A stretch of 55,094 nucleotides of DNA from Clostridia bacterium (GCA_017621695.1 JAGASP010000033.1:1-55094), one strand, 5' to 3'; shown: positions 3,210-51,400, counted from the stretch's first letter. Notes: generated from the letters alone by a model not told the origin. A program made the numbers and translations.

Positions 3210-4277
3210 TCAGGGGTGTTCTTTGTGTTTTTTTGCGCCAACGCAAGCCAGTCCAACCAAGACTGTCAAAAGGCACAGGCTGCTTGCCGTGGCCGTACTG
3301 CCGCAGCCTTCGGGCGATGTCCCGGTGCTTGTTGTATCAGACGAAGAGACAAGCTCGGTCGTTTGCGCGGCGGTAGCGCTTTCCTCAGGCTCGGAAGCAG
3401 AGGAGGCCTCGGGTTCTGTTCCGATGATCAGGGAAGGAGCAGTCTCTACCGGCTCGGATTCTACGGGCGGCAACGTCTCCGCGGGATTCGTCTCGACAGG
3501 AGACGGATCGGTGACGGCCTCGGAATCCGTGGACTCCGTTTTTGAAAGATGCGCGAGAAGGTATTCTCCGGTGATAAAATCGGTGTCGTTGCATTTGTAG
3601 GCTGTGCCGACGGTGTTGTCATCTGTGGCGTCAATGGTAGCCAGCACCAGATCCATGACGAGCTGATGCTCGGGCACCAGATGTGTCGCGTCCAGATGGG
3701 TGTCGGTCTTGGTGCAATCCGCTTCAATGAAGATCAGCGACCAAGGGATGCAGACCTCCACGGTATAGGAGGAGCTGCCTTCGGTGTGTCCCAGAGAACA
3801 GCCGTCTACCTTGGAGGATACAATCCTTTCGTCATAGTTATGGCGGTAGACCACAACGTTGCCGTCGGCCATGGCACCCATGGAGAAAAATACACCCTTA
3901 TCATCGGATTTTTTCAGAACATATCCCGGGTTGAGGCCGATCTCCACACAGTCCGCGCCTACCCAATGGCCGTTTGTACCGCGGTAAACAGGGGTCTTGT
4001 CTTTGACGGTGGTGAAAACGTATAAGCCCGTGTCGTCCCAAGCAAAATACCAGACCGTAGAGGTTTCGGGGGTCATGCTTCCCACCCAAGCCTCAGCGGT
4101 GGTGTCATTCATGACCAACGCTTCTCCGGGATATTCTCCTTCCGAAAGGACTCCGTCGATGACAGGCGCATTTTGCGCATAGGGGATCTCTATGGAGTCA
4201 TCGACGGCACCGACGGTCAAAAGTCCCAACACCGTGAGGGTCAGAATCAAAAGGAGAAAAGAAAAGATTTTTTTCAT
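3210..4277 (-). CDS. Secreted CBM9/DOMON-like sugar-binding protein with Gly-Cys C-terminal membrane anchor
   Basis: Signal peptide; APVIDG..EGEY, AWDDTGLYV and YTVEVCIPWS motifs; S/T/E linker; GCGS + TM + KKHK tail. Confidence 0.7.
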   Translation of the reverse strand: MKKIFSFLLLILTLTVLGLLTVGAVDDSIEIPYAQNAPVIDGVLSEGEYPGEALVMNDTTAEAWVGSMTPETSTVWYFAWDDTGLYVFTTVKDKTPVYRGTNGHWVGADCVEIGLNPGYVLKKSDDKGVFFSMGAMADGNVVVYRHNYDERIVSSKVDGCSLGHTEGSSSYTVEVCIPWSLIFIEADCTKTDTHLDATHLVPEHQLVMDLVLATIDATDDNTVGTAYKCNDTDFITGEYLLAHLSKTESTDSEAVTDPSPVETNPAETLPPVESEPVETAPSLIIGTEPEASSASEPEESATAAQTTELVSSSDTTSTGTSPEGCGSTATASSLCLLTVLVGLACVGAKKHKEHP

Positions 4278-48417: not shown

Positions 48418-51400
48418 TCAGTCCTCTTTTTTGCGGAGGGCGAACCATGCGAGGGGCAGAAGAGAGAGGGCCGTCAGCGCGACGAGAGATGCGCAACCGG
48501 CATCCTCTACGGGTGATGTTTCGTTGTCCACGGGGGTCGTTGCGGTCTCTTGGGCGGTTGCTTCCTCCGATCCCGCGGGTTCGGTGACGGAGTCGCTCTC
48601 ACCGTCGATAGACTGTTCGGGCTCGCTTGACGTATCCTCAGGCTCGGTCACGGATTCGCTCTCGCCCTCGGTGGGCTGCTCGGGATCTTCGGGATCGACA
48701 ATGGTATCGGGATCCTCAGGATCCTCGGGGAATGCGGGCGGCAGCTCCTTGCCGACCAGCGCGAGCAGCTTTTTCGCATAGTCTCTGGCCTGTGTCTGGG
48801 TCAGAAGGGGATTTTCCAGAGCGGACATCACGTCCTTGAGCTCCTTGGCGTTCTCGTCGCCACCCTCAGCCTTGAAGGTGTCGATGGCATCCTGCAGGAC
48901 GGTTTTGTCACATACGGGCTTGCCGTAAGCCTCGATCTCGCCGAGCTGAAGGAGGAAGCCGTCGTTACCGCCGCCGCGGAGCTTGGTGCCCGTGACACGG
49001 ACAAAACGTGCGTTGACGGGAGAATCCAAAACGATTTCGAGCTTGTGACCCGAATTATAGTCCTGAGAGCCCGTGACCTCATGGACAACGGTCCAGGCGA
49101 GGCCGTCCTCGGACAGCGCAACGCTATAGTCCTCGGGGAAAGCGCCGTTATCTTCCAAAACAATCTTTTCCACGGCAAAGAGATCTCCGAAATTGATACC
49201 GACGTATTCGGTAGCTGTAGAGGTGCGGTTGAGGCCTACGTTAGAGGTCCAGCCGTTACCTGTCTTACCGTCGTTGATGTAGGAGATATCCCAGCCCCAC
49301 ACCTGATAGTGGGCGGGGGTGGTGGAGGAGAAGAAGGTCTCCTTGCCCTTGGCGATGTTTTCGCCTTCCTTGTATCCGACCACGGTTTCGTCGTCCTTGT
49401 CGAGCAGGCTGAACTTTTCGGGCGCGGGAACGGTGCCGTCGTCGTTGTAGATCTCGATCTCGTTGATGGCCATGTACTGTGCGCCCTGGGCAATTTCAAG
49501 CAGGTCGATGCGCACGTATCTGGCTTCCTGTTCGCCAATGCTGATCTTCATGCCCTTGGGGGATGTGATCTCCAGATCGGTCAGGGATTTGACCTCGACC
49601 CAAGCTTCTCCGTCGTTGGAAACCGAAATTTTTAGATCGGCGGGGAAGGCCTTGCCGTAGGCGAAGATGCCGCCTGCGGGATAGAGATCCACGCGGTTGA
49701 ACTTGAGCGTGCGGCCAAGGTCGATGTCGATGTAAGAATCTCTGCGGTTTTCGGTTCTCCAGCCGTTGCCCTTGCCCTCGGAAAGTCTTTGGCCGTCCTG
49801 CAGGCAGGAGATGTACCAGCCGTCAGAGCCCACGGAGGAGGGAGCGGTGATCATGGCATCCTCCACGAGATTGGTCGTAGCATCAGGCTGACCCTCGGAG
49901 GCTTCATAGAAATCAAAGCTTTCGGGGAGCGCGATGAACATGGCGTCGCCGGCTGCCAGCGTCAGGGAAAGCTTCTGGCCGTTCATGGTCAGCGCCTTGA
50001 GAGAACCGTCGGTGCGGCTGACCTCAGAAAGAGACTTGATGGCGCTGTCAAAGGTGAGCTCCACGTCCTGTTTGGCCCCGTAATTGTTGTTGACGACCAT
50101 GAGGTAGTTGCGGCCGGTCTCCTTGTGTCGCATCCAGGAGAGGATGACCGAGTCGTTCTTGTCGGCCTTTACGAAGAAATCTTCGGGAACGGCGGGCTGA
50201 CCGTAGGTGTCGGGGCCGTTGAAGTATACGCCCAAAGCATCGCATTTGACAAGCGTCTTGCCGATGGCCAGAATCTCGTGGTTGATGGTCTTGATGGCCT
50301 CGTAATGAGCGTTGGGTGTGCCGTCAGCCGCGATGATACCGTCACGGAAGGGCTCGGAGCGGTTGACGGGGGTAAACCATGTAAAGAAGGAGAGCTGCTT
50401 GTAGCCAAAGGCCAGGGAAGCATACATTTCATAGCGGATCTCACTGTCGGTGGGGCGACGGAAGGCAACCTCCTGACAAACGGTCTGGATGTAAAGACCC
50501 GTTTTGACGTCATTTTTCAGACCCACCTCGTAGCAGGAGCGGACGTTCTTGAAGAATCCCGCGCGATCCATAGCACCTGCCTGCAGGGGGAAAGGATAGC
50601 GGTCGAACATCAGGTAATCCAGAGGATAGCCTGCGTCGGCGGTCAGGCGGCACCAGTCATTCATCTGTGCCTGATAAATCTCCTCCGAGCCGTAAGCGGC
50701 GCTGGGGAGGAAATTGAGGTGCATATATGCGTCGGGCGCTGCCTTTTTGAGGTTGATATAAGCCTTCAGGTATGCGTTGGGATTGAGGGGCTCGTCAAGA
50801 ATGTAGAAGCCGTAAGCGCCGGGGACATTCTTATAGCGAGCAACAGCATCGGCTACCTGCTTTTCGCTCTTGTTGAGGAGAGAGCCGCCGAAATTGCCGT
50901 CGGATACCGTCATGCCGAGACCGTACTTTTCGCAGAGGGCCAGCATTTTGGCCTGATTATCCACGGTCGCAAGGGTCTCCTCGCCCGCGCCGAGCACCCA
51001 GGTAACACCTGCATCGGCGATGAGCTTGTACTGCTCGTCGGTGATGTATTCGGGGGTGGGAGGCCAGAAGATGGAGATCATGATATTATCGTCGAAGGAA
51101 TACTTCTTGTCAACTACCTTGACAGAGCAGGTCACCGATTGATTGAGCTGTGCACAGGTCATGGTGATGGTGGTCTTGCCCAGCTTCTTGGGGGTGATGG
51201 TACCGTCGGCGGCAATGGTGGCTACCGAGGTGTCCGAGCTCTTATAGGTGACAGGATATGTGTCCGTCGTGCCCTTGAAGGTGGGCTTGAGCTGATCGGT
51301 CTCTCCCACGAAAAGCTCAAGGGAGGTTCGATCCAAGGCCAGGGTGGCCTTGGCATTGCCGAAAACGGCGATCTCACCGAGCTGTGCCAATGCGCCGTCA

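Follow-up and report, generated by a model that had tools for sequence, protein, structure and literature searches.

Cysteine-bearing sorting signals at protein C-termini have been described in Myxococcota, Synergistota, some Proteobacteria and Thermococcales, and myxosortase, their cleavage enzyme, was first shown in 2025 (PMC11980579, in the part of its text available to us). In the same part of the text, Guo, Haft and Wall leave the lipidating enzyme of MYXO-CTERM unidentified and name Lgt as the leading candidate. Here we describe the GC tail, found at the C-terminus of four proteins encoded in a 55,094-nucleotide stretch of DNA from Clostridia bacterium (GCA_017621695.1 JAGASP010000033.1:1-55094; this whole stretch is called the window below), and a cassette of two genes located on another contig of the same genome, coding for a paralog of Lgt (Lgt') and for a CPBP-family protein.

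The GC tail is a tripartite C-terminal sorting signal, consisting of a polar or acidic linker followed by the motif G-C-[G/A/S]-[S/A], a membrane helix of ~20 residues, and a Lys/Arg cluster. That it is a real signal linked to the CPBP protein is very likely. The same Cys-tail logic is thus met in a large uncultured group of gut Clostridia, where the gene of the protease sits side by side with that of a dedicated Lgt paralog. Since the MYXO-CTERM lipidating enzyme is the missing piece, with Lgt as its candidate (PMC11980579, available part), this coupled paralog is the new element of the system. No description of the signal or of the cassette was found in the limited set of papers searched or in NCBIfam 20.0.

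GC tails encoded in the window

The tail genes of the window and their tails, the latter defined by translation and by a hidden Markov model (HMM) of the tail, are as follows.

3210..4277, minus strand: gene P0002, 355 amino acids (aa), with a signal-peptide-like N-terminus, a CBM9-like domain, an S/T/E/P linker and a GC tail
3213..3311, minus strand: tail of P0002, EGCGSTATASSLCLLTVLVGLACVGAKKHKEHP (translation and tail HMM)
14223..15953, plus strand: gene P0003 (the open reading frame, ORF, opens at 14202; likely start MKKYL at 14223), with an acidic linker and a GC tail
15864..15950, plus strand: tail of P0003, SGCGATVLGSVAVLMAAAAAAVVLKKKED (translation and tail HMM)
18643..20352, minus strand: gene P0004, with its GC tail at 18646-18732 (tail HMM 47.2 bits)
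48418..51963 (ORF to 52023), minus strand: gene P0005, 1181 aa from MKKKRTATK, with its GC tail at 48421-48501

By translation, the C-termini are PEGCGSTATASSLCLLTVLVGLACVGAKKHKEHP (P0002), QSGCGATVLGSVAVLMAAAAAAVVLKKKED (P0003), KSGCGATLLSSVAVLIAAVAAAAVLKKKED (P0004) and DAGCASLVALTALSLLPLAWFALRKKED (P0005). All four reproduce exactly the strings proposed in an earlier reading made from the sequence alone (the sequence-only reading); the ranges given there contain the stop codon, so that the first and the last miss one codon of the string quoted, a trivial difference. P0002 matches the Pfam domain CBM9_1 (E 6.5e-8) and its tail scores 35.0 bits with the tail HMM. For P0003, with a tail score of 54.3 bits, the Pfam scan gave no domain, and a CBM9-like lead is weak only (Atlas score 0.92). 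P0003 and P0004 are paralogs with 65% identity. P0005 is composed of three F5/8 type C domains and a Big_2 domain, followed by the acidic linker and the GC tail (41.7 bits). The similarity of P0002 and P0005 to P0003 is confined to the linker and the tail, and the tail is therefore a module placed on unrelated proteins.

The N-termini of P0002-P0005 are Lys-rich and hydrophobic, and no N-terminal lipobox is present in any of the four (both by a heuristic rule), in agreement with the non-lipoprotein signal peptides assigned to them before. The LPXTG motif is absent from the tails, as had also been claimed. The statement that the window holds neither a sortase nor a CPBP protease is correct for the 47 window ORFs scanned; the relevant CPBP gene lies on another contig.

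The GC tail as a genome-wide signal

The window makes up contig C3 of a draft genome of 2.62 Mb (G000; 127 contigs, 52.9% G+C, 90.6% complete). Its 7344 stop-to-stop ORFs of at least 100 aa were scanned with a regular expression for a polar linker, [G/S/E]-C-[GASKR], an uncharged run and a basic end, giving 45 matches, of which 3 are spurious, and consequently 42 tail ORFs. The Cys is invariant in 42 of 42 tails, but the expression that defined the set demanded it. An unbiased count of its presence is provided by a Cys-free filter (polar linker, uncharged run, basic end), which returned 57 ORFs with a Cys within the first 8 residues of the run in 42 of them; one further ORF has G-C-K just ahead of the run, and the other 14 are spurious frames or plain anchors. 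The conservation of the Cys among the C-terminal tails of the genome, on which the earlier proposal depended, is borne out by this Cys-free count.

The residues around the Cys are restricted as well. Position -1 is G in 40 of the 42 tails, position +1 is G (22), A (12), S (6), K (1) or R (1), and position +4 is most often V (20) or L (12). At position +2 the expression excluded nothing but charged residues; the tails have S (24) or A (18) there. Between the Cys and the first K/R there are 19-23 uncharged residues, followed by 3-12 more residues up to the C-terminus. The HMM built from 41 tails matched 42 places in G000, and the abundance of the tail in this genome is far above chance.

The 39 complete clients (of 42; the other 3 are cut by contig ends) all have Lys/Arg-rich and hydrophobic, export-like N-termini according to a simple rule, and an N-terminal lipobox occurs in 1 of the 42 tail proteins. 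This sole case is a CHAP protein encoded at C90:1945-4035 on the plus strand (locus L169), with the lipobox LTAC; if both signals are used, its product would be lipid-anchored at both ends. The 42 clients fall into at least 13 BLAST clusters, a number which is a floor, as single linkage probably over-merges through the low-complexity linkers. No Pfam match at 1e-5 was obtained for 24 of the 38 clients encoded elsewhere than in the window; the remaining ones carry Laminin_G_3, CBM_4_9, NPCBM, F5/8 type C, GH2, a GH106-like stretch, GDPD, NAGPA, Exo_endo_phos, CHAP, Amidase_3 and similar domains.

The Lgt'-CPBP cassette

There are four CPBP genes and three Lgt-family genes in G000. One of each lies on contig C40, directly after a GC-tail gene, in the order GC-tail gene, Lgt', CPBP.

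C40:58019-59551, plus strand: GC-tail gene, upstream of Lgt'
C40:59702-60520, plus strand: Lgt', the Lgt paralog (PF01790); the ORF opens at 59645, likely start MYPY at 59702
C40:60522-61385, plus strand: CPBP gene, Rce1-like (PF02517)

The ATG of the CPBP gene is located 1 nucleotide past the stop of Lgt', and in relatives the two ORFs abut or overlap. Open frames of ~560-575 aa which would join both genes, in genome G044 (locus L013) and at locus L060, cross gaps of ~100 N and are scaffold artefacts, so a true gene fusion was rejected; such frames are a trap for automated annotation. The cassette CPBP protein is best matched by the myxosortase core model, and the other three CPBP proteins of G000 by ABC_perm_CPBP. 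The genome also encodes a canonical Lgt, LspA and ~100 pattern-matched classical lipoproteins (lipobox L[TVAS][ASG]C), and Lgt' is therefore an extra copy. In G000, at its 90.6% completeness, searches for sortase (PF04203), rhomboid (PF01694) and exosortase (PF09721) came out negative, with matches obtained in the control genomes.

The gene neighbourhood was counted in the best 80 of 403 stretches from species-representative genomes that encode a relative of the CPBP protein, as found by its alignment. These 80 come from metagenome-assembled genomes of uncultured gut Clostridia, Oscillospiraceae or Eubacteriales from ruminants and humans, and include Clostridium sp. CAG:448 and Eubacterium sp. 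CAG:180 (by record titles). Lgt' lies directly upstream of CPBP in 75 of the 80 loci, and a GC-tail gene is found within 3.5 kb in 25, mostly just upstream of Lgt'. The sole further recurring neighbour is ftsK (41 of 80 loci); genes for PaaK-like, ACT, MoxR and DUF58 proteins, considered as conserved neighbours, were dismissed, being present in just 0-4 of the 80.

Co-occurrence of the tail and the cassette

The distribution of tails and CPBP genes was followed in samples of 121, 300 and 41 genomes, in which relatives are counted individually and are not independent. Within the genus, GC tails are present in 24 of 24 genomes (3-62 matches each) and the CPBP gene in 23 of 24. One genome from each of 16 other families of the order gave no tails with the tail HMM and no CPBP (0/16 for both). 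In the family sample (121 genomes including G000), 29 genomes have tails at E<=1e-4 and 27 have CPBP at E<=1e-10, the latter divided into 25 with strong (>=142 bits) and two with weak scores (50.2 and 43.9 bits). All 25 strong-CPBP genomes have tails. In 23 of these 25, an Lgt' gene of >=200 bits is placed directly upstream on the same strand, and the number rises to 24 with G139, where the contig ends within Lgt'; the remaining genome, G141, has its CPBP gene at the start of a contig. A tail match in G115 has no Cys and was discarded as false.

For the rest of the class (300 genomes), tails at E<=1e-6 are seen solely in G301. The same genome is the best match of the CPBP profile in this sample at E<=1e-20 (348 bits), followed by G378 (215 bits), G414 (91 bits) and G351 (84 bits), with one of the 300 genomes left out. 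G301 has 15 tail matches of the form GGCGSS, helix and KKRK. At a looser threshold two GC tails are present in G378, and none in G414 and G351.

What the genome data show directly is the signal itself, its numbers and its restriction to this lineage, and also that it co-occurs with the Lgt'-CPBP cassette and lies next to it. The sequence-only reading had suggested an intramembrane protease as partner, with phylogenetic profiling as the way to recognize it, and a single-copy CPBP gene indeed tracks the tails across the genus, family and class samples.

Sequence features of the two enzymes

The cassette CPBP protein scores 62.5 bits with PF02517 (cut-off 22.4). Its motifs FEExxFR, FGxxH and HAxx[D/N] are invariant in 11 of 11 members and follow the family pattern EExxxR, FxxxH and HxxxN/D of the PF02517 intramembrane glutamic proteases. 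The AlphaFold2 model (predicted local distance difference test score, pLDDT, of 87.7) is an all-helical membrane protein. With Foldseek against the PDB, the best rows are MmRce1 (4cad) and SpdC (6u0o), with weak E-values and no match at E<=0.001.

Lgt' scores 101.6 bits with PF01790 (cut-off 24.9) and stays under the cut-offs of the Lgt equivalog models (70 vs 118.9 for TIGR00544 and 109.9 vs 334 for NF000778). Compared with E. coli Lgt (5azb), the equivalents of G142, R143, G145, G154, Y235, R239, E243 and R246 are retained, and the positions of N146, N149, E151 and L152 are occupied by C, A, C and C. In consequence, the canonical signature GRxGNFxNxExxG is replaced by GRLGCLMAGCCHG, GR[LIV]GC..AGCC[HY]G. 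In E. coli, this signature motif is assigned to phosphatidylglycerol recognition, and Lgt is inactivated by R143 substitutions and by E151A/Q (PMC4728403, in the part available to us). In their sequence features, both enzymes look active.

A tree of 52 rows of the Lgt family has a clade of canonical Lgt (support 100/99) and, apart from this housekeeping Lgt, a clade made up of the 29 cassette Lgt' rows (100/99). The sister clade of cassette Lgt' (98/86) comprises unlinked copies and a "sub2" group, the latter present also in tail-less genomes. In the CPBP-less genomes, no CPBP or GC-tail gene was found within ~4 kb of the "sub2" Lgt-like genes. The Cys-rich signature was considered as a mark of the cassette and ruled out, as a wider clade of Lgt-like paralogs has the same signature; Tyr at the position of H103 was likewise ruled out as a special feature of Lgt', being also present in the housekeeping Lgt of G000. 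The wider Lgt-like clade is spread over many Clostridia, including genomes with neither GC tails nor a CPBP ortholog, and is represented by the following paralogs.

G000 C94:15179-15919 (L006): Lgt-like paralog of the wider clade, GR.GC..AGCC.G
Loci L124-L130 and L139-L143: Lgt-like paralogs of the wider clade, GR.GC..AGCC.G

Proposed pathway and alternative explanations

In the pathway that we propose, the N-terminal signal peptide would direct a client to export, and the tail helix would keep it in the membrane. Lgt' would then attach a lipid to the thiol of the Cys, on the outside of the membrane, and the CPBP protein, acting as an Rce1-like glutamic intramembrane protease, would cut just past the lipidated Cys and remove the helix with the basic tail. 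The mature protein would remain on the outer leaflet of the single membrane, attached by a C-terminal lipid, with the long linker reaching through the wall. Taken as a whole, this mechanism, in which Lgt' lipidates the Cys and CPBP removes the helix, in a Gram-positive system that resembles those of the myxosortases and has a lipid transferase of its own, is probably correct. The chances are about even that Lgt'-CPBP is a self-contained two-enzyme machine for "C-terminal lipoproteins", with an Lgt paralog re-tooled for a Cys placed before a helix and a protease that trims the helix. Lipidation at the Cys had been raised as an idea from the sequence, and the Lgt paralog coupled to CPBP now supplies a concrete candidate enzyme, the two reactions themselves being deduced from comparative genomics.

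Several points weigh against this pathway. Lipidation and the type of lipid, as well as the site of cleavage and the place where the mature protein ends up, are what we infer from genome comparison. The CPBP proteins are not always proteases, since LnsB of S. aureus is a part of an N-acyl transferase (according to the source text available). In Lgt', Cys residues take the places of N146 and E151, and with E151A/Q being inactivating in E. coli, the donor lipid, its handling or the chemistry may differ; the Cys-rich signature is moreover common to the wider clostridial Lgt-like clade, with some of the genomes lacking both tails and CPBP. The coupling is incomplete, with 5 of the 80 CPBP loci having no Lgt' inside 3.5 kb. 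Three of these five genomes possess a sister-clade Lgt-like gene elsewhere (212-223 bits), and G301 (the same as G457) and G458 hold only more distant Lgt-like copies of ~100 bits. In respect to co-occurrence, kinship inflates the counts, and the carrier genomes of the family may form one or a few subclades. G018 shows 32 tail matches and no CPBP match (88% complete), and tails with no CPBP ortholog occur in G060 (3 tails, 8% contamination), G152 (2) and G070 (1, in a 39-aa frame), at the loci listed below. Errors in binning, a cassette lost recently or a different processing enzyme could lie behind these CPBP-less tails.

G060: CPBP-less tail loci L105, L110 and L113
G152: CPBP-less tail loci L106 and L111
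G070: CPBP-less tail locus L107

One may ask whether Lgt' is the transferase at all, for the tails could be processed by CPBP while the housekeeping Lgt or some other enzyme lipidates the Cys, and Lgt' has another task and is linked by gene order only. Cleavage of MYXO-CTERM by MrtX takes place in E. coli, where the housekeeping Lgt is the only one (PMC11980579, available part); G301 and G458 have CPBP (G301 also tails) with no Lgt' of the cassette clade, and related Lgt-like genes with the Cys signature are present in tail-less genomes. This explanation is nevertheless unlikely, as Lgt' immediately precedes CPBP in 75 of 80 loci and in 24 of 25 family genomes, the two ORFs abut or overlap, and the cassette Lgt' forms a separate clade. 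A simpler possibility is that the tails are permanent single-pass anchors, with the Cys serving in a disulfide or in helix packing, for example, and the cassette unrelated. Such anchors do exist in G000, where ~8 other secreted proteins have C-terminal helix anchors devoid of Cys. The retention of G-C-[GAS]-[SA] on unrelated proteins and across genera, the disappearance of the tails where CPBP is missing (except for three genomes with 1-3 tails), and the tail genes adjoining the cassette in 25 of 80 loci make permanent anchoring improbable.

We give similarly little credence to regulated shedding, in which CPBP would cut the tail with no lipidation and release the proteins into the wall or medium. 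The CPBP proteases can be plain endopeptidases, and the long linkers would suit released, wall-associated proteins, but shedding leaves the invariant Cys and the coupled Lgt paralog with no role, and Rce1-type enzymes act after lipidation of the Cys (10.1101/2023.06.07.544157, available part). The remaining explanation, that Lgt'-CPBP acylates classical N-terminal lipoproteins in a manner resembling LnsAB and follows the tails only as a shared trait of the lineage, takes its appeal from LnsB, a CPBP-family component of an N-acyl transferase (in the source text available), and from the ~100 pattern-matched classical lipoproteins of G000. We consider it very improbable, as G301 and G378, outside the family and with strong CPBP orthologs, also carry GC tails, no gene other than ftsK is found next to the cassette more often than a tail gene, and the CPBP protein retains its protease motifs.

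If lipidation by Lgt' followed by cleavage by CPBP is true, the GC tail would be the chief means by which a Gram-positive gut lineage with no sortase found displays proteins on its surface, and Lgt' would be the first lipid transferase of Cys-type C-terminal sorting signals identified by its own gene. The pathway would account for the display of ~42 lectin-like proteins, glycosidases and wall enzymes where no sortase was found, and it yields a rule by which surface proteins can be predicted from sequence in rumen and human-gut metagenomes. The transferase question, open for these signals, becomes a small experiment with two genes and a tail of roughly 35 residues.

Other genes of the window

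The tail genes of the window are accompanied by the following genes.

4274-6004, minus strand: Exo_endo_phos protein, 576 aa, with a classical lipobox
7279-10320, plus strand: protein of 1013 aa with a TIR domain and BspA-type leucine-rich repeats
12730-14037 and 17079-18548, both plus strand: two FKBP-type/trigger-factor-like prolyl isomerases with classical N-terminal lipoboxes
51996-52712, 52709-53473 and 53546-54307, all minus strand: tandem trio of cyclophilin-type prolyl isomerase genes directly upstream of P0005

The stop of the Exo_endo_phos gene overlaps the start of P0002 by 4 nucleotides, which puts an N-terminal lipoprotein and a GC-tail protein in one apparent operon. Each FKBP-type gene adjoins one of the paralogous genes P0003 and P0004, and the arrangement looks like a duplicated two-gene module. 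Counting the cyclophilin and FKBP genes together, folding helpers are found beside three of the four tail genes of the window.

Comparison with known sorting systems

The four tails of the window and the 41 aligned tails were compared with the sorting-domain models of NCBIfam 20.0, and no model was seen to reach its cut-off, in line with the earlier statement that the tails belong to no named family. All matches are weak. The scan of the 41 tails yields E-values only, and the bit score quoted for Rumino_NPXTG comes from the first tail. This model matches 14 of 41 tails (best E 1.2e-3; 16.3 bits for the first tail vs a cut-off of 23.5), the LPXTG model TIGR01167 matches 8 (best E 0.0071), and Synerg-CTERM (TIGR04564) matches 4 (best E 1.5e-4). 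MYXO-CTERM (TIGR03901) matches 3 of 41 tails below its cut-off (best E 0.015) and none of the four tails of the window.

The likeness to LPXTG/sortase systems is limited to the layout of motif, helix and basic tail and to surface display in Gram-positive cells. In contrast to those, the GC tail has no LPXTG motif, no sortase gene was found in the genome, and a Cys replaces the Thr-Gly cleavage motif. What the GC tail has in common with the classical lipoproteins processed by Lgt and LspA is an enzyme of the Lgt family and a Cys that lies next to small residues on the outer side of the membrane. The topology is inverted, however, as the Cys of classical lipoproteins follows an N-terminal helix whereas that of the GC tail precedes a C-terminal one, and the partner protease is CPBP in place of LspA. 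The residues after the tail Cys ([GAS][SA]x[VL]) appear to resemble the lipobox of G000 (L[TVAS][ASG]C) read backwards, which would be expected if an Lgt-type pocket met a helix running in the opposite direction.

Closest in design are the myxosortase systems. Like the GC tail, MYXO-CTERM, with its protease MrtX, is tripartite, has an invariant Cys next to Gly and is carried by dozens of clients per genome; a CPBP-family intramembrane protease co-occurs with it, and the proposed order is lipidation followed by cleavage distal to the Cys (PMC11980579, available part). The differences lie in the GC tail ending in Lys with a single Cys, where MYXO-CTERM ends in Arg and has a GCGC-type motif, and in the host. 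Omp85 (PF01103) was not found in the 90.6% complete G000, in a search in which control genomes gave matches, so the host of the GC tail appears to be monoderm and no type II secretion step is expected, whereas MYXO-CTERM clients of a diderm host reach the outer membrane. Here, in addition, a dedicated Lgt paralog is coupled to the protease, while the transferase that serves MrtX is not identified in the available part of PMC11980579.

The pairs Synerg-CTERM/MrtS, JDVT-CTERM/MrtJ and CGP-CTERM/MrtA are likewise made up of a Cys-bearing C-terminal signal and a CPBP protease; they occur in different lineages from the GC tail, and the bit scores, where shown, are far under the curated cut-offs. 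The MrtJ model matches 11 of 11 cassette CPBP members weakly (best E 4.6e-7; 20 bits vs a cut-off of 75 for the G000 protein). The MrtS model does not match the cassette CPBP of G000, and matches 2 of the 11 members (best E 1.1e-5); its scores of 20.1 and 24.8 bits (cut-off 130) belong to two other CPBP paralogs of G000. The core model Mrt_core (NF040914) finds 10 of the 11 members, all weakly (best E 5.6e-8), with 23.7 bits vs a cut-off of 100 for the G000 protein. By the cut-offs of the myxosortase models (Mrt_core NF040914 and MrtX/C/P/Z), the cassette CPBP is thus not a member of these families. A term search of the myxosortase preprint, in the part of its text available (10.1101/2023.06.07.544157), gave no mention of Firmicutes, Clostridi-, Bacillota or Ruminococc-.

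A clostridial analogue of MYXO-, Synerg-, JDVT- and CGP-CTERM, as first proposed from the window, is supported by the co-occurrence of CPBP and by the coupled Lgt paralog. The GC-tail system works like the myxosortase systems, yet stands outside every curated family tested.

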